Below, piece after piece: positions 8,654 through 22,480 of a stretch of 64,000 bases of DNA. The stretch is taken from positions 1,984,001 to 2,048,000 of the forward strand of contig OZ252220.1 of the NCBI GenBank assembly GCA_965249135.1. The letters are read 5' to 3'. The first letter of the stretch is position 1; every line of letters begins with the position of its first letter. The notes below the pieces were generated by a model that was not told the origin of the DNA, did not search any database, and was given only the letters and a program-made list of their open reading frames with translations. Origin of the DNA: Alphaproteobacteria bacterium (GTDB lineage Bacteria; Pseudomonadota; Alphaproteobacteria; GCA-2746255). The position numbers and the translations under genes were made by a program.

Positions 8654-9136
8654 TTAGAGCCGTTCCGCGATAGCGTCTGCGTCGGGAGCCAGGTTTGCCA
8701 GAGTGGCGACCACTTCTTCCCACTGACCGGGCTTCATTTGTTGGACAAGCTGGGTTTGTACTTTCGTCCAAAGCGGCAGGGCTTCCTTCAGTCGCTTAAC
8801 CCCTTTCGCGGTTAGGGCAAGCTCCTTATGGCGCTGCTTGGGACGGGCCTTCACCTTGATCAGACCATCCCGTTTAAGCGGCCTTAGATTGCGGGAAAGG
8901 GTTGAGGGATCCATCGCCATCTCCTGGGCAAGGCCCGAGATTGTTGGCCGATCCGCAAGCGCCGTACTGACCAGGATGGCCATTTGGTTTGCATGAAGCC
9001 CTGTGGGAGCCAGTGCTTCGTCGTAGAGCCGCGTCACCGCTCGGGAGGATCGCCGCAAGTTGTGGCAAACACAGACCTTTCTAGTCCGAGCAAATTTCTT
9101 AAGTTCTTCGCGATTCCATGCATCCGGCATGTGCAT
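8654..9136 (-). CDS. MarR-family transcriptional regulator with an N-terminal CxC motif
   Basis: CVCHNLRRSSRAVTRLYDEAL, MDPSTLSRNLRPLKRDGLI winged HTH, LTAKG. Confidence 0.92.
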   Translation of the reverse strand: MHMPDAWNREELKKFARTRKVCVCHNLRRSSRAVTRLYDEALAPTGLHANQMAILVSTALADRPTISGLAQEMAMDPSTLSRNLRPLKRDGLIKVKARPKQRHKELALTAKGVKRLKEALPLWTKVQTQLVQQMKPGQWEEVVATLANLAPDADAIAERL

Positions 9137-9271
9137 ATCCCTTGATACTATCTCGGCAAGATAAGGAAAGCCGAACAATCCCACAACTTCCCAGCTTTTG
9201 GCGGCCTCTCGTCTGCTGACAAAAAACTCTCACAAATTTGTGATCGTCCAGAATTTGAACAGGCAAGTCCG

Positions 9272-9281: not shown

Positions 9282-9425
9282 ATCAAATATATATGGAACG
9301 ATTCTAAAAATCAAAAACAAATCTCACTTACGGATTAAGAGGATCTCCTGAGGTTGGAACGTACCGAAGGAGGAAATGCAGAAGAAAAAAGTTGGTGTAA
9401 TGCGACTTGGAATCAGGAGACTCCG

Positions 9426-10360
9426 ATGAGTGCAGATTCCCTAAAAACCCTTAAATCCGTTTTGCTATCCGGCACCATGCTTCCTTTGGTGGCGGGGGCA
9501 GGCGTTATTGCGATTGGCGTGACGCTTGGTGACACCCCTGTGCAAGCCGAGCAGCTCGCGGGCTATTACAAAAATCAGGGAACGAAGAATCCCTGTGCCG
9601 CGAAGAATCCCGATATGGCAAGGCGGGGCTGCAACCCTTGTAACCCTTGCGCGGCGAAGGGCTGTACCCCTGTGGCCCGTGCGGTCCATGCGGTGCCGCT
9701 GCAGGCCCAGAGCTTTCGGATAAGGAAGCAGACGCGCTTTATAAGAAGCTCAAGGGCAAGATGGCGAAGGCCTACAAGCAATCCGGTCTTCCCTTCGCCG
9801 CCTATTACCAGACCTGGAAACGCTTCAATACCGTCCCATACGTTTCCGCCACCCATGGCGGTCGTTATGTGAACAACTATGGGAACGCGAAGGCAGGCGC
9901 ATACAGAAAATTCGAAGAAGCTGGGAAGATGCCCAAAAGCGCCATCCTTGTGAAAGACAGCTTCACGAGCGTGGCTGCGAAAGGATGCAACCCCTATAAT
10001 CCCTGTGCGGCGAAGAACCCTTGTGCGGCGAAAGGATGCAATCCCTGCAACCCCTGCGCGGCGGAGAACCCTTGTGCGGCCAAGGGCTGCAACCCTTGCA
10101 GCCCGTGCGGTCCCTGCAACCCATGTGGGGCTACATCGAAATCTCCCATTGGTCCCCTCTTCGTCATGGAAAAGATGGGAGAAGGATTCTACCCCGCGAG
10201 CGGCGATTGGCGTTACACGATGGTCTTGCCAAACGGGCAGGTCTTTGGGACGACGAAGGGAAAGGGCTCCGACAAGGTTGAGTTCTGCATAACCTGTCAC
10301 GTAGCTGCGGAAGATTACGATCACTTGATGTTCTTGCCGGACGAATATCGGAAAAAGTAA
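9426..10360 (+). CDS. Cytochrome P460-family c-type cytochrome with two Cys-rich NPC/AAK repeat blocks; 1-bp frameshift near 9665
   Basis: CAGGAG RBS, signal peptide, [31 protein letters not shown]-terminal CITCH; adding one A (TGT-AAC-CCC) restores the repeat and a 311-aa ORF. Confidence 0.8.
9586..9693 (+). repeat. Coding low-complexity repeat block 1 ([14 protein letters not shown]), 8 Cys
   Basis: Read directly from the frame-corrected translation. Confidence 0.85.
9973..10130 (+). repeat. Coding low-complexity repeat block 2 ([11 protein letters not shown]...), 12 Cys, inserted inside the P460 domain
   Basis: Lies between LVKDSF and GPLFVMEK in ORF 9647-10360. Confidence 0.9.
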
Positions 10361-10466: not shown

Positions 10467-11495
10467 ATGCGCGAGGATTGGACAAGGCCCCTTTTATTGG
10501 CAGCTGGCATATTTATCTTTTGTGTAACCGCCTACCATCTTTTTTCAGGGAACGACGTCCTGGCCAGCGATTTGCGCAAATCCAGCGATTTGCGCAAATG
10601 GAGGTCAGAATGGCCCCATACGGACTTTGCAAAAACATCGATCGACTTCAATGAGATTTCTTCCGGGGGACCCAAGAAAGACGGTATTCCTGCAATTGAT
10701 TATCCGAGATTTAAGCCGATCGATGAGATTTCGACGGTCGGCAATGATGAACTCGTTGTGACGGTTATTATTGGTGATGAGGCACGTGCCTATCCAGTGC
10801 AAGTCCTGATGTGGCACGAGATCGTCAATGACAAGATCGGGGAGGTGCCCCTTTCCGTCACGTTCTGCCCGCTTTGCAACTCGGCAGTCGTTTTCGACCG
10901 GCGGCTGAAAGGGAAAGTCCTGGATTTTGGGACCACCGGTAAACTTCGCAACTCAGACCTCGTCATGTACGACCGTCAAACGGAAAGCTGGTGGCAACAG
11001 TTCACGGGTGAGGCGATTGCCGGATCCCTTACCGGCGAAAAATTGACGTTCCTCCCGGCGCGGGTCGAATCCTTCGCGAAGTTTCGGAAGCGGGCTCCAA
11101 AGGGAAAAGTGCTGGTCCCGAATTATACGAGCATGCGTGCCTACGGCTACAATCCCTATGCCGGCTATGACCGCAATCCCTATCCTTTCCGCTATCGGGG
11201 CGAAATGCCGTCAAACATCGCCCCGTTGGAAAGAGTCGTCTCGGTGGGGAAAGAGGCCTGGAGCCTCAAATTTCTCCGCAAACGTCGAAAGATCGTCGCC
11301 GATGGTCTTATTCTCACATGGGAATCCGGCCAGAACTCGGCGCTTGATACAGAGCGTATCAGCGAGGGGCGCGATATAGGGAATGTCATCGTCCAACGGA
11401 AAACGGCGGATGGCCCGGAAGATGCCGTTCACGACATAAGTTTTGCCTTTGCGTTTCATGCCTTTCATCCCGACGGCGTGATTCACGTGGATTAG
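10467..11495 (+). CDS. DUF3179 domain protein (exported, CxxC)
   Basis: SGGPKKDGIPAID, WHEIVND, TFCPLCNS, FGTTGKLRNSDLVMYDRQTESWWQQ, FAFHAFHPD. Confidence 0.88.
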   Translation: MREDWTRPLLLAAGIFIFCVTAYHLFSGNDVLASDLRKSSDLRKWRSEWPHTDFAKTSIDFNEISSGGPKKDGIPAIDYPRFKPIDEISTVGNDELVVTVIIGDEARAYPVQVLMWHEIVNDKIGEVPLSVTFCPLCNSAVVFDRRLKGKVLDFGTTGKLRNSDLVMYDRQTESWWQQFTGEAIAGSLTGEKLTFLPARVESFAKFRKRAPKGKVLVPNYTSMRAYGYNPYAGYDRNPYPFRYRGEMPSNIAPLERVVSVGKEAWSLKFLRKRRKIVADGLILTWESGQNSALDTERISEGRDIGNVIVQRKTADGPEDAVHDISFAFAFHAFHPDGVIHVD

Positions 11496-13148: not shown

Positions 13149-13496
13149 CAGACTACCTTTTGCACCTCGTCCGGGATGTCCGGCGGCCCGTCATAGCCCA
13201 CCCAGGGCCAGGCGCGCGGATTGTCGTACCAGGCGGCCATAACCAAGTCGTGGAAGGCGGCATAGGCAAGCTGCAGGAGCGTAAATGAGCTCGTCGACCA
13301 ACGGCCCCCAGGAAATCCTCCACCTCTTTCCCGGAGGCCGTCTCCCAGCCGCTCCAAATGCCCGTGAGTGCTATTCTGGCCGGCGGGAAGTCCAATAGGT
13401 CGAAAAGCTGGCGCAGGTCAGCCTGCATCAGGGGGGACATGGCGGCGATTAGGCGGTCGATTTCACCCAAGATTTCGGCAATCGCAGCCGGCCGCC
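13148..13496 (-). pseudogene. 5'-truncated, frameshifted small partner subunit of the GMC oxidoreductase
   Basis: Two frames join at a G run near 13305 to give ...LTGIWSGWETAS...FLGRWSTSSFTLLQLAYAAFHDLVMAAWY...VGYDGPP; no start codon before the upstream gene's stop. Confidence 0.7.
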
Positions 13497-15279: not shown

Positions 15280-16551
15280 ATGATGGTGAAGACAAGGATC
15301 ATTTGGATATGGGCCATGTTGGCCGCTGGCCTGATCTTTGGGATTCCGGCTTATGCCGAAGAAGTGCCCGAAGGGACAGTCATCAGCGCCAAGAATCTTG
15401 GCTCCCTTCTCGATAAGACCTTCGAGGGGGAAACCATTCAGAATCTTATCTCTGAGCAGTTTCAGTGGCAGATTCGCGAGAAGGGTCTGACGATGAAACT
15501 TAAGCATTCGAAGCCTCATCCAAAGGATCCGCAATGGGTGGCGGCGACGAATCGCAATCTGGAAGCGGTAACGCTGGATGGCGCAACGAATCAGGTGAAT
15601 GGCTGGCTGGCTGGTGCGCCTTTTCCGGCGATCGACTTGCAAGACCCGAAGGCGGGCATCAAGGTCATGTGGAACATGTTCCTGGGCAAGCAGCAGGGCG
15701 ATAGTCAGGAATACCCGAACACGGTCATTGCACTTCTCAACGACAAATCAGGGCTCGAACGGGTCCAGAAACAATTTGTCAAGCGGGTTTTCGTGAGAGG
15801 GGCTTTGCGCCGGGGCGGGCAAGTCTCCGAAGAGAAGAGAATCTTGGAAAAAACGCTTTCCGTCCTGACCGCACCCCTGGACTTGAAGGGAAATGGGCTG
15901 GTCCTGATCCGCTACGTAAATGGGGATCCGGATTGGCTATTGGCCTACGCGGTAGCGGCGCGCAAAGTACGGCGTTTTTCAGGGGCCTTCTGGATGGATA
16001 AGTTGGGTGCCACGGACTTCCTTACCGACGATTTGATGGTCTTGAGCGCACATCCGACCTGGTATCCAGAATTCAAGATAATCGCGAAAAAGAAGATCCT
16101 TGTAGTTGCCCATTCGAAGGACCCTTTCTGGCAGCCAAAGGCTGCCACGCCCCAAGAACGATTTCCTCTCTTCGATTTAGGAACGCCACCCTATTGGAAT
16201 CCGGTCGATGAGTGGGAACCCCGTGAGGTCTACGTCGTCGAGGGAAAAACGCCCGAACAGCACCCCTATAGCCGCAAGGTGGTCTATGTCGATGCCGAGT
16301 TCTGGACCCCTTATTTGGGCGAGTATTACACGCCGAAGGGGCAGCTCTGGAAAACGACGATCCAGGGCTACAGCGTCTTCCCGACCCAGGATGATCCAGA
16401 CGGAAAGGTCTTGTGGCCGACATGGTCGGCGGTTTTTGATTTTCAGATCGGCCACGCCACTATTCTGATGACGGATGAAAACATCCGATTCAATACCGAT
16501 ATTTCGCCAACGGAAATCAATCTGAAGGCCGTCAAAAGAGCAAAGTGGTGA
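15280..16551 (+). CDS. DUF1329-family exported protein (LolA-like fold)
   Basis: Signal peptide, GAPFPAID..DPKAGIKVMWN, RKVRR, WEPREVYVVEG, HPYSRKVVYVD. Confidence 0.8.
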   Translation: MMVKTRIIWIWAMLAAGLIFGIPAYAEEVPEGTVISAKNLGSLLDKTFEGETIQNLISEQFQWQIREKGLTMKLKHSKPHPKDPQWVAATNRNLEAVTLDGATNQVNGWLAGAPFPAIDLQDPKAGIKVMWNMFLGKQQGDSQEYPNTVIALLNDKSGLERVQKQFVKRVFVRGALRRGGQVSEEKRILEKTLSVLTAPLDLKGNGLVLIRYVNGDPDWLLAYAVAARKVRRFSGAFWMDKLGATDFLTDDLMVLSAHPTWYPEFKIIAKKKILVVAHSKDPFWQPKAATPQERFPLFDLGTPPYWNPVDEWEPREVYVVEGKTPEQHPYSRKVVYVDAEFWTPYLGEYYTPKGQLWKTTIQGYSVFPTQDDPDGKVLWPTWSAVFDFQIGHATILMTDENIRFNTDISPTEINLKAVKRAKW

Positions 16552-16657: not shown

Positions 16658-16689
16658 AAAAAAAAGAGGAGCGCGAAAGCGCCCCTCTT
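16658..16689 (-). terminator. Intrinsic terminator of the POTRA-P460-like gene
   Basis: Minus strand reads AAGAGGGGCGC-TTTC-GCGCTCCTC followed by T8. Confidence 0.8.
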
Positions 16690-16715: not shown

Positions 16716-17834
16716 CTAGCTCGCATCGGTCTCGAAATAAAGCGTCTTCTTGTACTCATCCGGAAGGGCGAACAAATAATTGGATTTTGCGCCTCTTTCC
16801 TTTGTGATATCTGCAGCACTACCTTTGGCGTCGATCCTGGTGATCTTCCAGTCGCCGGTTGCAGCGCTGAAGCCTTTTTCCATCTTTTCAAGAATGACGA
16901 GCTCGCCGGCCCTCCACCTGGCGGTGAAGCCGGTGCGATTGCCATCACCGTGGAAGCTCTCCAGCACGAGAATCGTGTCGGCCGGCATCCGGTTGAAATT
17001 GCCCCACTTGTCCACCTTGTCGTTTGCATAAAGGTTGACGTAATGGTCGCCGGTGTATTTTCCGATTTGGAAGGGAACGAAGTTATAGCGCTTCCATTCC
17101 GTGTATTCGGAAACGATCTCGTTCTGGGATTTTTCCCACTCTTCCACCATCTTCCATCCAACCGCCATATAGAGGGCCTGCGCTTCCTTCTTCGAGAGCT
17201 TGTTGCGGGCGACCAATTCAGCTTGCTCTTCAGCCGACCTCAAGTCTTCACGACCGATCACTTCGCCGCGCACGACTGGAGATTCAATGGCGTTGACGAC
17301 CAAGGCGTCTCCCTCGGTGTGAACGATGATCTCCCAGAACATGCCGGTTGCGAAAAGCGACGTCACGGCAAGAACGAACTGATCGTAGTCAAACGGCTCA
17401 CCCGGACGTGTACGCTTGGCGTGGTCTTCGCCCAAGATATAGCGTTCGGCAAAACCTGCTTCGAGATCCTTCTCGCCCTCGACGCGAAGCTCTTTAACGA
17501 CCTTGCCGTTCTTCATAGGCCAAGTCTTGCCGGCACCGGGCGCGTAGAACGTGCCAGGGAGGTCAATCGTATCCGGGTAAAACCGGTAATAGTCCTTCGG
17601 CAAATCTTGCGTGAAGTTTTGGGGGGCGGCATCTGTTCGATCGTGATGCGTGAACGTGTTTTCTTTCACGTTGTAGATATGCCCGCCCCGAATGAAGGTG
17701 TCTGGTGCGTCCGGCGATTCGGCCCTGGCAGACGTGCCCATGACCAGAGCGGCTGTCGTTACGACGACAGCCCCAAAGGCTATTGGAAGTATCGCTCCGG
17801 ACGACAGAAGGGATTTCACGAAACTGGAACTCAT
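16716..17834 (-). CDS. Exported protein: POTRA-like domain fused to a haem-less cytochrome P460-like domain
   Basis: GAGGA RBS and signal peptide; LRVEG...PGEPFD...LFATGMF...EGDALVVNAIESP resembles BamA POTRA1; the C-terminal half aligns with the 9426-10360 protein but has no cysteine. Confidence 0.7.
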   Translation of the reverse strand: MSSSFVKSLLSSGAILPIAFGAVVVTTAALVMGTSARAESPDAPDTFIRGGHIYNVKENTFTHHDRTDAAPQNFTQDLPKDYYRFYPDTIDLPGTFYAPGAGKTWPMKNGKVVKELRVEGEKDLEAGFAERYILGEDHAKRTRPGEPFDYDQFVLAVTSLFATGMFWEIIVHTEGDALVVNAIESPVVRGEVIGREDLRSAEEQAELVARNKLSKKEAQALYMAVGWKMVEEWEKSQNEIVSEYTEWKRYNFVPFQIGKYTGDHYVNLYANDKVDKWGNFNRMPADTILVLESFHGDGNRTGFTARWRAGELVILEKMEKGFSAATGDWKITRIDAKGSAADITKERGAKSNYLFALPDEYKKTLYFETDAS

Positions 17835-18094
17835 GGCTTCCTCGCTGTCTTTGTTCTGTTTAGAAATTCTTTGTTTTTTATCGTTGGCGCCAAGCTGGCG
17901 CGTTGAATTATTTAACATATTTTCAACGGGTCAGGAAATCTAGTCAATATCGCTTGATTGGTGGCCTGACTTTGCGGGCGCGGGAGACCAGGGCTTGGCC
18001 TTATTTCTTAAGCTGTTGATCTGACTTAAGAACTGGGATTAACCTTAGCGACGATACCGAATTTTAAAAGCCGGCCCAGAGGCGCCAGGGTGCA

Positions 18095-18802
18095 ATGACC
18101 GACCAAAACCCGATTTCTCGCCCTAAACTCGAGGCCATGCTGACGGCCGGCCACGAGATCCTGGAATGCTACCGGCTGCTCACCAAGACAGGCGACAACG
18201 TCGTCGGCGAGCTGATTCGCGGTCACGAGACCTTCTATGAGTGGAATCACTATCCCGAGGGGGATGCCTACGATCCGGAGACCCATTCCCAGTACTACTA
18301 CCACGCCCATCGGGAGGATCGGGAGGAACACGGCCATTTCCACACCTTCCTGCGGCCAAAGGGCATGCCTTCGGATATCCTGCCGGCTCTTTTGGCGGAT
18401 TTCGAGCCGCCTGAAGGCGACAACGCCGCCCTCAGCCATCTCATCGCCATCTCGATGGATGCCCATGGGTACCCGACCGGACTGTTCACCACGAACCGCT
18501 GGGTGACCGGCGAGGTCTGGTATGCCGCAAAGGATGTCTGCCGGATGGTTGAAATTTTCGAGATGGATCAGGCGCGTCCATCCTGGCCAGTCAATCGCTG
18601 GGTTACGGCAATGCTGCGGCTTTTTCAGCCGGAAATTTTTGATCTCCTTTCACGTCGCGACGCGGCGGTAAAAGCCTGGGAGGAGAAGCATCCGGATCGC
18701 AATGTTTACGAAGACCGGGAATTCGAGGTCGCTTCCGAAATCGACATTTCCGTGGAGGGTAAACTTCGCCAACTCGAAGCGATGCTCCAGGAAAGCGCCT
18801 GA
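18095..18802 (+). CDS. DUF6969-like His-rich hypothetical protein
   Basis: HYPEGDAYD, QYYYHAH, EHGHFHTF, LFTTNRWVTGEVW. Confidence 0.7.
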   Translation: MTDQNPISRPKLEAMLTAGHEILECYRLLTKTGDNVVGELIRGHETFYEWNHYPEGDAYDPETHSQYYYHAHREDREEHGHFHTFLRPKGMPSDILPALLADFEPPEGDNAALSHLIAISMDAHGYPTGLFTTNRWVTGEVWYAAKDVCRMVEIFEMDQARPSWPVNRWVTAMLRLFQPEIFDLLSRRDAAVKAWEEKHPDRNVYEDREFEVASEIDISVEGKLRQLEAMLQESA

Positions 18803-18888: not shown

Positions 18889-19266
18889 TTACTTTGCCGC
18901 TTCCTTCAAATACGCGATTAGATTCTGGCGTTGGGCTTCCTTCTTCAGTCCCGGGAAGGCCATTTTGTTGCCTTTAATGTAGGTCTTCGGGCTTGCAAGA
19001 TAGGCGTCGATCGTTTCTTCGTTCCAGGTGACGCCCGCCGCCTGCATCGCCTTCGAGTAGTTGAAACCTTCCGCCGTTCCCGATTTCCGACCGAAGATGC
19101 CGGCAAGGGAGGGACCTACTTTGTGTTTGCCAGCCTCCAATGTGTGACAGGCTTTGCACTTTTTAAAAACCTTTGCGCCTTTTTTCGCGTCACCCGCCAA
19201 CGCGGATACACTCGACAGTGCGAGCACTAAGGCAACCGAAACGGCCAGAATCTTCGATGATTTCAT
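18889..19266 (-). CDS. Class I cytochrome c (c2/c550 family)
   Basis: Signal peptide, [22 protein letters not shown]. Confidence 0.95.
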
Positions 19267-19420
19267 CTATTCTCTCCTGAACCTTTCACAGGCTTGGGGA
19301 ATTCGTTCAAAATGCGTCCGCAGTATCCGAAAGATATAGGCGCCTTGCAACCGGTTAGCTGGAAATCGGCCGAATCATTGTTCCCATACGGGACGCACCC
19401 TCAGACGTAATGCCCGCGTC

Positions 19421-20530
19421 TTAAAAAGGCGTAAATCCAGACTGACCCCCCATACGACGGTAACGGAAAGGGGGCGGCGCCTCGCCAGGCTCGCTTTCCA
19501 CCAAGCGTCTTACCAAGTCGTGGTCTGGGGAAAGTTCACAGACCGGGTCCGTGTTTGCCGCGTTTCCGGTCAACATCAGCGCCTGGCAACGACAGCCCCC
19601 CCAATCGACTTCTCGCCGGTCGCAGGACCGGCAGGGCTCTGGCATCCAGTCGGTACCTCGGAAACGATGGAAGGCGTCCGATTCCAACCAGATATCGGTC
19701 AAACTCCGCTCCCGGACATTGTCGAAGTGAAGGTCGGGGATGGTCTCGGCGGCATGGCACGGAAGCACCTTGCCGGATGGGCTTACATTCAGGAATTGGT
19801 TGCCCCATCCGCCCATGCAGGCCTTTGGCCGCCTCGCATAGTAATCCGGCGGCACGTAATCGATGAGTAGAACCCCCTTCAGCCGCTCTTCCGCCTCCAC
19901 GACGACGGCATTTGCCGCTTCAATCTGCTCACGGCTGGGAAGCAGTGCACGTCGGTTTTCGATGGCCCATCCGTAATATTGGGCATGGGCGATCTCCAGC
20001 CGTCCGGCGCCGAGATCGACGGCAAGATCAATCATTGCGTCCAGCCGCTCCAGATTCTGGCGGTGAAAGACGCAATTGATCGTGAGCGCAAGGCCGGCAT
20101 CGCGAATAAGCCGTGCCACCGTAAGTTTCTTTTTGTGTGCACCTTGTATGCCGGCGATCCGGTCTGCTGGCTCAGCAGAGACGTCCTGAAGACTGAGTTG
20201 AACATGCTCGAGGCCAGCTTTCCTAAGTGCGGCAATCTTCGATTCATCAAGGGGGATGCCAGAAGTGATCAGGTTCGTATAAAGCCCAAGGCCTGTGGCA
20301 TGGCGAACGAGGGTGGAGAGGTCCTTGCGAGCGGCGGGTTCGCCGCCGGAGAAGTGGATTTGATAGGCGCCAAGGGCAGCTGCTTCCTCCACTACCCGGC
20401 ACCATTCCTCCGTTCCTAGTTCGTCGCCTACGCCCTCCAGTGCCAGCGGGTTCGAGCAATATGGGCATTGCAGCGGGCAGCGGTGGGTGAGCTCGGCTAG
20501 CACGGCAAGAGGGGGTGCCGGCGTGTTCAT
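19421..20530 (-). CDS. pqqE: PQQ biosynthesis radical SAM/SPASM enzyme
   Basis: ELTHRCPLQCPYCSNP, KACMGGWG, DWGGCRCQA. Confidence 0.97.
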   Translation of the reverse strand: MNTPAPPLAVLAELTHRCPLQCPYCSNPLALEGVGDELGTEEWCRVVEEAAALGAYQIHFSGGEPAARKDLSTLVRHATGLGLYTNLITSGIPLDESKIAALRKAGLEHVQLSLQDVSAEPADRIAGIQGAHKKKLTVARLIRDAGLALTINCVFHRQNLERLDAMIDLAVDLGAGRLEIAHAQYYGWAIENRRALLPSREQIEAANAVVVEAEERLKGVLLIDYVPPDYYARRPKACMGGWGNQFLNVSPSGKVLPCHAAETIPDLHFDNVRERSLTDIWLESDAFHRFRGTDWMPEPCRSCDRREVDWGGCRCQALMLTGNAANTDPVCELSPDHDLVRRLVESEPGEAPPPFRYRRMGGQSGFTPF

Positions 20531-20814
20531 ACCGCAAGGATCCCCTGATCCGCGAGGTCCTGAAGAAGCTCCAATACGTCCTCCCCAACCCTTTCGCTGG
20601 AGGTCTCGTAGCGCTCGGCAAGGGTTGTAACCATAGCAGCAACGGATGAATTCCCATCGCAGAGCTTCAGTACCTCGACCGCGATTTCGTCTGGCACGAG
20701 AAGGCGTTCCGGGGCCAGCACGATCCACCGCCCGCGCTTTTCATCGAAACGAAACCGAACATGCGGCGCAAGTCGTGGCATGGTCTCGGTGTCAAGCACA
20801 CGTCGTTTATTCAT
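20527..20814 (-). CDS. pqqD: PQQ peptide chaperone
   Basis: WIVLAPER, LCDG; 95 aa between pqqC and pqqE. Confidence 0.95.
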   Translation of the reverse strand: MNKRRVLDTETMPRLAPHVRFRFDEKRGRWIVLAPERLLVPDEIAVEVLKLCDGNSSVAAMVTTLAERYETSSERVGEDVLELLQDLADQGILAV

Positions 20815-21551
20815 GCACCGCTCTCCGGTTGGAAGGCGCCAGGTGGAACCCGTCCGGGATCAACATAGGCATAGGTAAGCGCATCCAGCTGTGTCCACAA
20901 AACGTCACATTTGAAGTGGAGGGCCTGAAGGACGCGTTGCTGGGCTTCTGCCGTTCGTGCTTCCCTCTTCACATAGTCGAGGGCAAAATCGGCGTCCCGC
21001 GTTGCCTGGTCGAGGCGCTTGCGAAAATAGGAAAGCGTCGTCTCATCGATGAAATCGTAGTGTTCCAGCATGCCGGCGATCCGCTCGCGATGGATTTTCG
21101 GCGCGAAGAGTTCCGTCAATGAAGAGGCGATTCCCTCAAGAAGGGATCGCTCGGCGACGAAGTGAACATAGGCTTTCACGGCAAACCGCGTGGCTGGCAG
21201 GACCCCTTGCATGGAGACGACGTCGTCCCGGGGAAGTCCCAGGCCATCCGTCAGTTTCAGCCAACGGGCGATACCCCCCTCGCGTTCCGGCGTCCCGTCG
21301 TGATCCTCGATGCGAACACGCCAGGCGCGTCGGAGTGCCGGGTCCGTCATACGCGAAAGCAGCACGGCATCCTTGATCGGAATGTGCGCTTGATAGCAAT
21401 AGCGGTTAAGTGCCCAAGCCTGCACCTGTCCTTTCCGAAGCTTCCCTCCGTGAAGAAGTGCATGGAAAGGATGCTTGTCATGATAGCGCTCGGCTCCGAT
21501 CGCATGCAGCGCCGCTTCAAGTTCATCCGGTGTCAATGGCACGCCACTCAC
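20811..21551 (-). CDS. pqqC: PQQ synthase
   Basis: RYHDKHPFH, IPIKDA, SSLTELFAP, LWTQLDAL. Confidence 0.97.
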   Translation of the reverse strand: MSGVPLTPDELEAALHAIGAERYHDKHPFHALLHGGKLRKGQVQAWALNRYCYQAHIPIKDAVLLSRMTDPALRRAWRVRIEDHDGTPEREGGIARWLKLTDGLGLPRDDVVSMQGVLPATRFAVKAYVHFVAERSLLEGIASSLTELFAPKIHRERIAGMLEHYDFIDETTLSYFRKRLDQATRDADFALDYVKREARTAEAQQRVLQALHFKCDVLWTQLDALTYAYVDPGRVPPGAFQPESGA

Positions 21552-22480
21552 AACTGAATCTCCATGCCGTCATAGGCCACTTCCCAGCCCTTCTCGGTAA
21601 CCGACTCGCGTTCCGGCGAATCATCCATGAGAACAGGGTTCGTATTGTTGAGATGAACGAAGATTTTCCGTTTCACCTCTAACGTCCGAAAGGCGGCAAG
21701 GCTACCTTCTTCACCGGAGATACTCATGTGTCCCATACGCTTTCCCGTCTTTACGCCAGTGCCGGCCGTGACCATTTCATCGTCCTGCCATAGCGTTCCG
21801 TCGAAAAACACAAGGGGCGTCTTACGAAGGCGCTTCGCCAACCCATCGGGGAAGGCCGCGCAGCCCGGTATGTAATAGAAATAACCATCCCCCGTCTCGG
21901 ATGCCACCCGAAGCGCGATGGTGTCTTCCGCAACGCTGCCGAAATCTGGTCCCGCCGTCGGATCCTCCAGATAAAGCGCCACTTTCCCCGGGACGGTGAA
22001 TGCCTCGACGACGAGGCCGGAGGGAGCGCGATCGGCGTTTTCGAGTCGCGTTGGTGTGTCGAGGGTAAATTTTCTCCGGCTCACTACCTCAGGGTTTAGC
22101 GCTTGAAAAATTTGATTTGCATCGAAAGTCCCGTGCACCCTTGCCGTCGCGTAAAGGCTTAACGGTTGCCCCTCACGAAGGGTAAGAAGCCCTGCGATGT
22201 GATCGACATCGGCATTCGTCACCACGACACCGCCAATCGGACTGTGCCTTGCCCCATCCGCTGGATGAAGGGCCGGATTGTCGTTCAGTTGCTGGCGAAG
22301 ATCGGGGGAGGCGTTGAGAAGAAACCAGGGCCCTTCATCCGCGCGCACGGCAAGGGAGGACTGGGTTCTGGGGTGGACTTTCGGATCCCCCGAACGGGCG
22401 CGCTGGCAGACGGGGCAGTTACAGTTCCACTGAGGGAGCCCCCCACCGGCAGCCGATCCCAGAACGAGAATCTGCAACAA
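21548..22480 (-). CDS. pqqB: PQQ biosynthesis protein B
   Basis: LGSAAGGGLPQWNCNC, RMGHM, HLNNTNP. Confidence 0.97.
   Translation of the reverse strand: MLQILVLGSAAGGGLPQWNCNCPVCQRARSGDPKVHPRTQSSLAVRADEGPWFLLNASPDLRQQLNDNPALHPADGARHSPIGGVVVTNADVDHIAGLLTLREGQPLSLYATARVHGTFDANQIFQALNPEVVSRRKFTLDTPTRLENADRAPSGLVVEAFTVPGKVALYLEDPTAGPDFGSVAEDTIALRVASETGDGYFYYIPGCAAFPDGLAKRLRKTPLVFFDGTLWQDDEMVTAGTGVKTGKRMGHMSISGEEGSLAAFRTLEVKRKIFVHLNNTNPVLMDDSPERESVTEKGWEVAYDGMEIQL

Follow-up and report, generated by a model that had tools for sequence, protein, structure and literature searches.

What kind of protein results when a POTRA domain is joined to a cytochrome P460 fold that has lost its haem site? The question is raised by a single gene in a stretch of 64,000 nucleotides from an Alphaproteobacteria bacterium (contig OZ252220.1, positions 1,984,001 to 2,048,000, of assembly GCA_965249135.1), which we refer to as the window. 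A preliminary description of this DNA had read the gene as encoding an intact haem-less pseudo-cytochrome that serves as a periplasmic adaptor. We find that its product, hereafter the fusion, is a predicted exported, cysteine-free protein consisting of (i) a leader, (ii) a region of about 70 residues (the N-region), (iii) a domain resembling the first POTRA domain (POTRA1) of BamA, and (iv) a P460/c'-β fold (Table 1). The sections of the 2025 superfamily review drawn on here (PMC11928373) contain neither ‘fused’ nor ‘fusion’ and describe the P460 fold only as a scaffold for haem c. As the preliminary description had held, the combination of POTRA and cytochrome P460 in one protein was not found in the literature searched, and the same literature yielded neither a stand-alone POTRA protein nor a haem-less P460.

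Table 1. Coordinates of the fusion gene, its parts and the related P460-like genes. Positions are those of the window unless a locus name (L009, L013) is given; res, residues of the fusion.
Feature	Position	Strand	Basis or remark
Whole fusion gene	16716..17834	minus	372 codons and TAG stop at 16716-16718; open reading frame list, start set by orthologue alignment
Shine-Dalgarno sequence GAGGAAG	17837..17843	minus	ends 2 nt before ATG; read off sequence
Leader, res 1-38	17721..17834	minus	invariant SFVKSLLSSG..LP, long hydrophobic stretch, conserved A-x-A↓E site; invariant alignment columns
N-region, res 39-110	17505..17720	minus	motifs RGGH.YN, YRFYPD, PG.FYAP and WP.K kept in 9/9 sequences
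BamA-POTRA1-like domain, res 111-190	17265..17504	minus	BLASTP, NCBIfam, hhalign, AF2, structure matches
Linker and N-terminal helices common to the ~220-aa P460-like subfamily (LSKKEAQALY...), res 191-246	17097..17264	minus	alignments, model
P460/c'-β β-sheet core without haem site, res 247-372	16719..17096	minus	Foldseek, VIA-align, hhalign 99.8%
Codon 291, Leu (Ile in 5/9 members), position of the haem cross-link Lys	16962..16964	minus	profile alignment to solved chains
Codons 349-350 (A↓K), junction of the missing ~15-residue CxxCH segment	16785..16790	minus	alignments
Intrinsic terminator	16664..16689	minus	11-bp stem, 7 G-C pairs, T-run
Cys-rich CxxCH-bearing P460-like paralogue, same leader as fusion	9426..10360	plus	split by 1-nt frameshift at 9665
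Tandem CMNCH P460-like gene	L009 2800-3477	plus	
Tandem CMNCH P460-like gene	L013 1417-2055	minus	

The middle of the protein is related to BamA at the level of sequence, profile and structure. The genome encodes a separate, full BamA (C1:530629-532821), which BLASTP aligns with the fusion from the mature BamA N-terminus into the start of POTRA2 (E 7e-13, 29% identity), and the matches of the fusion to BamA POTRA1 among PDB sequences reach E 2.2e-5. Positions 1-73 of the NCBIfam BamA model match residues 111-190 at E 4.5e-4, far under the cut-off of that model, and an hhalign comparison of the nine-member fusion family with 30 BamA N-terminal fragments gives a probability of 98.8% over 78 columns (E 1.2e-16, 38% identity). 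In the AF2 model, the elements follow the β-α-α-β-β order of a POTRA domain (strand 115-119, helices 128-134 and 150-162, strands 166-174 and 177-184) with a predicted local distance difference test score (pLDDT) of 86-94. VIA-align superposes this domain on POTRA1 of Acinetobacter baumannii BamA (9cx4_A, residues 28-96) with a Z score of 7.0 and a root-mean-square deviation (rmsd) of 1.7 Å over 69 residues (32% identity); the corresponding match to E. coli BamA POTRA1 (2qcz) has a Z score of 6.5, also at 32% identity, and Foldseek matches the region to 2v9h at E 1.8e-4. A POTRA1-like middle had been placed earlier at about 17,270-17,500, and profile, BLASTP and AF2/Foldseek comparisons confirm it within the limits given in Table 1.

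The fusion thus shares with the POTRA1 of BamA, an Omp85 protein, its fold, the motif LFATG.F....GD.L.V...E.P and 29-38% identity to BamA N-termini. Unlike BamA, however, it has a single POTRA domain and lacks the 16-stranded outer-membrane barrel of Omp85 proteins (Bac_surface_Ag), and within that domain it carries a family-specific, invariant insert of seven residues, GEDHAKR (residues 135-141). Furthermore, its POTRA domain is preceded by an unrelated conserved region of 70 residues and followed by the P460 fold. A phmmer search run exhaustively over 1.84 billion representative sequences returned 128 matches, and none of those outside the family covered both halves of the protein. Those aligned to residues ~90-210 were for the most part short fragments from the N-termini of other proteins, and Pfam found a POTRA domain in all ten that were scanned. 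The matches to residues ~210-350 comprised about 85 proteins, mostly of ~200-240 residues; in all eight scanned matches of ~190-345 residues, Pfam recognised Cytochrome_P460 at E <= 1.3e-4, with six passing the curated cut-off, and two longer ones (570 and 710 residues) contained no Pfam family.

The C-terminal half of the fusion was said in the preliminary description to be alignable by eye with a P460 protein encoded elsewhere in the window. BLASTP against the open reading frame at 9647-10360 reproduces every motif pair quoted there (E 5e-22, 28% identity). Comparison of the family with 28 CxxCH-bearing relatives by hhalign aligns 148 columns (99.8% probability, E 7.7e-30, 35% identity). Residues 234-365 of the model superpose on Methylococcus capsulatus P460 (9hrk_A) with a Z score of 8.8 and an rmsd of 3.9 Å over 124 residues; cytochrome c'-β of Thermus thermophilus (7ead) and P460 of Nitrosomonas europaea (2je2) are matched with Z scores of 8.6 and 7.2, respectively, and target-normalised Foldseek TM-scores to P460/c'-β structures are 0.56-0.58. 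Structure searches with the AlphaFold model thus match both POTRA and P460/c'-β structures. Within the P460/c'-β superfamily (PF16694), the fusion is closest to an uncharacterised subfamily of ~220-residue proteins that carry the motifs KDSF and MEKM and a C-terminal CxxCH, with which it shares the sheet fold and the N-terminal helices.

What sets the fusion apart from this superfamily is the absence of the CxxCH motif, of any cysteine and of the cross-link lysine, together with a non-conserved residue at the position of the distal carboxylate and a long stem branch in the phylogeny. According to the review cited above, CXXCH is conserved throughout the P460/c'-β superfamily, whose fold is distinct from that of other protein families (PMC11928373). 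The family has no cysteine in any of ten members, and the profile alignment with CxxCH-bearing relatives contains a clean gap of ~15 residues that sits exactly over the segment ‘..V.FC..CH..’. The lysine of the KDSF motif of these relatives aligns with K78 of 6hiu_B, F61 of 7ead and a methionine of 7s5o in a profile comparison with solved chains; this is the cross-link position, for which the review's Table 2 gives Lys78, Phe61 and Met79 (PMC11928373). In the fusion family, the position is occupied by leucine in four and by isoleucine in five of nine sequences. Of the 36 columns that are at least 85% conserved in the 63 relatives with a C-terminal CxxCH that could be placed in the alignment (A2), the fusion family keeps 17, among them W247, GDW and (E)KM, partly keeps seven and loses 12; the lost columns include both cysteines and the histidine of the motif, the cross-link lysine (now L/I) and an almost invariant histidine (now Y/F).

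The alignment upholds what had been noticed at first sight, namely a protein without cysteine, a clean deletion of the segment containing CITCH, and a change of LVKDSF to LVLESF. The deletion is found in every member of the family, and in contigs of two other studies the gene shows no indel; it is therefore not an artefact of assembly. Judged by its sequence, the fusion cannot bind haem c covalently. Having lost the segment with CxxCH as well as the lysine of the cross-link, it is predicted to be neither a c-type haem protein nor a hydroxylamine- or NO-converting enzyme.

Another branch of the same subfamily (P0049, P0088, P0097, P0099, P0124 and P0136) also has broken canonical haem ligation: CxxC is kept, the axial histidine is D, S, L, T or G, and the cross-link lysine is P, S or A. 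These proteins differ from the fusion in that they retain both cysteines, have no POTRA domain and end in long Pro/Asp-rich tails with LDPNAP-like repeats. They may represent a second, independent loss.

A protein that has lost the active site of its fold could be a decaying relic without function. The missing haem site is in line with such a reading, as is a frameshift at position 9665 that breaks another gene of the window (see below). A search among 5.8 billion proteins, however, found ten relatives of the fusion, of which eight are full length (353-373 residues, 62-97% identity) and keep the leader, the N-region and both domains; homologues retaining the whole architecture thus exist. The GTDB order to which the window belongs consists of one genus with six genomes, and a full-length fusion gene is present at the same site in five of them. 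The reading frame is intact in these five species and in three further metagenomic homologues. The sixth genome (G002, 91% complete) is no evidence for loss, as its contig ends ~2.3 kb past the Cys-rich P460 paralogue, shortly after the gene next to that paralogue and before the expected site of the fusion. Among about 397 genomes belonging to other genera of this class, none gave a match at E <= 1e-20.

The ratio of non-synonymous to synonymous substitution rates (dN/dS, Nei-Gojobori, codons containing N in G001 skipped) lies between 0.13 and 0.21 for the whole gene in all ten pairs; the closest pair has a dS of 0.42 and a ratio of 0.14. By part, the ratio is 0.09-0.15 for the P460 sheet (nine pairs, one being saturated), 0.07-0.24 for the POTRA domain and 0.08-0.25 for the N-region, so that purifying selection acts on every part. 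The gene is thus intact, conserved and under purifying selection in one alphaproteobacterial genus.

The gene lies on the minus strand, which had been left unstated before, and the predicted frame of 372 residues with a ribosome-binding site and a terminator of its own is confirmed (Table 1). An alternative upstream ATG at 17918 would give 400 residues (28 extra); the start at 17834 is preferred because all orthologues begin at the M(R/S)SSFVK site. Two weak σ70-like promoter sites upstream are not above the 1.2 ± 1.0 found in shuffled sequences and were not used. Four contigs from one metatranscriptomic run span positions 16,791-17,836 and cover 974 of the 1,119 nt of the gene; for the rest of the 8.6-kb stretch, the pieces listed from the same run are one of 197 nt and three matches of ~36-38 nt. 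As contigs cannot prove transcription, this cover is only a weak hint that the gene is transcribed, and the sparse cover of the other genes is not read as silence. The dN/dS values contradict the relic reading, the expression signals, the RNA-library contigs and the intact frames speak against it as well, and we regard it as highly improbable.

The motif K-[ST]-x-L-L-S-G-x-x-L-P of the leader occurs in only two open reading frames of the 2.1-Mb genome, those of the fusion and of the Cys-rich P460 paralogue at 9426, and intact orthologues of this paralogue in four sister genomes bear the same leader. Conservation this strong is unusual for a leader, which normally varies. Looser forms (K-S-x-L-L-S-G/T-x-x-L/I/V-P followed by a Gly-rich hydrophobic stretch) are found on the Cys-rich P460-like relatives P0023, P0051, P0093, P0094 and P0123. 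Twin-arginine export, brought to mind by the sequence MRSSFVK, was ruled out, as the leaders contain at most one arginine and that of this genome's copy contains none.

FtsQ has a POTRA domain followed by a β domain, and the hydrophobic stretch of the fusion leader (~24 residues, its N-terminal half invariant) is atypical of a cleaved signal peptide. The fusion could accordingly be an assembly factor held in the inner membrane by an uncleaved signal anchor, with transmembrane segment, spacer, POTRA and β domain arranged as in FtsQ/DivIB, an envelope protein that likewise combines a hydrophobic segment at its N-terminus with a single POTRA domain and a β-rich C-terminal domain. We consider this quite unlikely. 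The A-x-A↓E site is invariant and is directly followed by a variable insertion of 14 residues, as at a cleavage site; the POTRA similarity is specific to BamA POTRA1, and the FtsQ-type Pfam model gives no match. Unlike FtsQ/DivIB, the fusion has a P460 fold as its C-terminal domain, and its gene is not surrounded by cell-division genes.

The N-region has no relatives outside the fusion family in the exhaustive phmmer search. Its pLDDT is low in two AF2 models (<50-74 in the second, which comprised the N-region and POTRA domain with 14 family rows) and no fold could be assigned. An ShlB/FhaC-type POTRA was considered for it and dropped, because the best ESM Atlas scores (0.85 and 0.80) fall within the range reached by shuffled sequences; with the whole fusion protein, ESM Atlas gave no usable match. 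Nor is there a sign that it is a second BamA-like POTRA, since hhalign of the family against BamA fragments matched residues 105-189 only.

The POTRA domains known to date belong to membrane machines; in Omp85, TpsB and FtsQ proteins they serve to bind other proteins, which they do by β-strand augmentation. We favour the reading that the fusion is a non-catalytic binding or adaptor protein of the periplasm, and give it about an even chance. By the same β-strand augmentation, its POTRA domain would take up a partner polypeptide in extended form, and the dead P460 sheet, with its family-specific charged loops (HGD..R.G and ID.KG...DIT.E), would offer a second binding or oligomerisation surface. 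The polar residues that are invariant and specific to the family are H52, E136, D137, H138, D297, R300, D335, K337 and D342. In a more specific and, in our estimate, unlikely version, the fusion would be a free-standing POTRA1 decoy or adaptor that engages what normally docks on BamA POTRA1, be it client proteins (unfolded outer-membrane proteins) or a chaperone of the SurA type, and couples it to a new binding surface on the dead cytochrome.

Several points weigh against an adaptor. First, Pfam, which had been suggested as a check on the two domains, finds neither POTRA (PF07244, PF08478) nor Cytochrome_P460 (PF16694) in the fusion itself at E <= 1. Second, since the family occurs in a single genus and its synteny is fixed, the neighbourhood gives no independent clue to function. 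Third, activity might reside in the N-region, whose sole invariant histidine, H52, could form a site with H138 of the POTRA insert. Fourth, a non-covalent ligand may be held in the former haem pocket.

The last point can be widened to a reading in which the fusion is a ligand binder: the emptied P460 pocket, or a site made by the N-region and GEDHAKR, would be occupied by haem or another tetrapyrrole bound non-covalently, by a metal or by a small hydrophobic compound, with the POTRA domain serving only for docking. The retention of 17 of the 36 core P460 columns and the invariant polar residues listed above are consistent with this, and so is the location of the gene next to those for a cytochrome c and pqq functions. 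The segment that forms the proximal side of the haem site is deleted, however, and the sheet domain contains no histidine, methionine or cysteine that is both invariant and new (H295 is arginine in one member). In addition, E316, which aligns with the distal carboxylate, varies between E, K, R and Q. We therefore hold ligand binding to be unlikely.

As to this neighbourhood, the fusion gene stands by itself between a convergent DUF1329/LolA-like gene (15,280-16,551) and a divergent DUF6969 gene (18,095-18,802); past the DUF6969 gene lie a class-I cytochrome c gene and pqqE/C/B-like genes. The latter set occupies 18,889-22,480 on the minus strand, with the class-I cytochrome c gene and, upstream of it, pqqE-like (radical SAM/SPASM), PqqC-family and PqqB-like (metallo-β-lactamase fold) genes. 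In G001 and G003, the fusion has the same two neighbours, the DUF6969 gene and the cytochrome c gene, and a pqqE-like frame is seen beyond them; in G004 and G005, the DUF6969 gene likewise stands next to the fusion.

A further reading, which takes up the heterodimer suggested in the preliminary description, makes the fusion a dedicated partner of haem-bearing P460 paralogues, with the dead P460 domain pairing sheet-to-sheet with a living one and the POTRA domain tethering or delivering the enzyme. Solved P460 and c'-β proteins are mostly homodimers paired along their β-sheets, with the haems away from the interface, as stated in the review (PMC11928373), and such pairing therefore need not require haem. 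Two kinds of candidate partner are encoded near the fusion. In two of the five species (G003 and G004), a CMNCH-bearing P460-like gene (212-225 residues) lies directly downstream on the same strand (Table 1), and the Cys-rich paralogue, whose leader matches that of the fusion, is found at a distance of 3-7 kb in all six genomes. The tandem gene, however, is missing from G000, G001 and G005, with only an 18-residue remnant in G001 (L008 ~1206-1259; 61% identity, E 1.7e-4). Since it is present in only two of five species, the fusion does not depend on it.

The Cys-rich paralogue is itself frameshifted in this genome, where the fusion is intact, and the dedicated-partner reading consequently seems unlikely to us. 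The preliminary description had treated 9426-10360 as one open reading frame; in this assembly it consists of two (9354..9872 and 9647..10360), a base being missing at 9665. In contig X5, from another study, an additional A follows 9665 and joins the two into one frame of ~312 codons; the probable source run, X1, lacks this A. Intact copies of the paralogue exist in a near-identical strain and in G001-G004 (285-348 residues in the latter), and the frameshift may be either a strain-specific pseudogene mutation or a consensus error. Other differences among near-identical strains are an 18-nt in-frame deletion in a DUF3179 gene at 10,564 (X5) and small indels in the spacer 13,270-13,313, near 13,300 (X5 and X8).

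The Cys-rich paralogue scores 27.9 bits against Pfam Cytochrome_P460 (cut-off 27) and has a MarR-type regulator gene just upstream (8,654-9,184). It carries Cys-rich NPC repeats in two places, behind the leader (9,580-9,700) and in a hairpin loop (9,985-10,130). At least three NPC units are present in 14 of 137 fetched proteins (P0014, P0067, P0093, P0123 and others), some with up to 38 cysteines, and it is possible that the repeats bind metal. Two more CxxCH-bearing P460/c'-β-type genes of canonical length lie head to head ~1 Mb from the window (C1:993964-994638, minus; 994911-995363, plus); the latter has one TGA inside its family match.

A maximum-likelihood tree unites the C-domains of eight fusion proteins in a single clade (100/100), whose stem measures 2.14 changes per column, compared to a median tip of 0.58. 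Since support for the sister group of this clade is weak (45/77), the source paralogue is argued from the shared leader. We propose that a P460-like gene of the Cys-rich type, with the same leader, was the starting point, and that the 5′ part of bamA, encoding POTRA1 and the first strand of POTRA2, would have been inserted between leader and P460 domain. The haem site would then have been lost in a burst of fast change, represented by the long stem branch, and the protein conserved since.

The family occurs in a single uncultured genus, which is a real limit, and it has a bearing on both of its component folds. Were the decoy or adaptor version of the favoured reading true, the fusion would represent a new class of periplasmic factor, either a chaperone or a regulator of how outer-membrane proteins are assembled, and at once the first POTRA domain recruited out of Omp85, TpsB and FtsQ proteins into a soluble periplasmic protein and the first haem-free P460 fold. 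Through its solitary POTRA1 of the BamA type, carried by a protein that is probably soluble, the fusion would offer a way to find out what POTRA1 binds. Independently of partner or ligand, a conserved, selected and cysteine-free version of the P460/c'-β fold shows that this fold can be reused without haem, and, as a naturally occurring ‘apo’ scaffold, it allows the contribution of the P460 fold to be studied separately from that of its cofactor.

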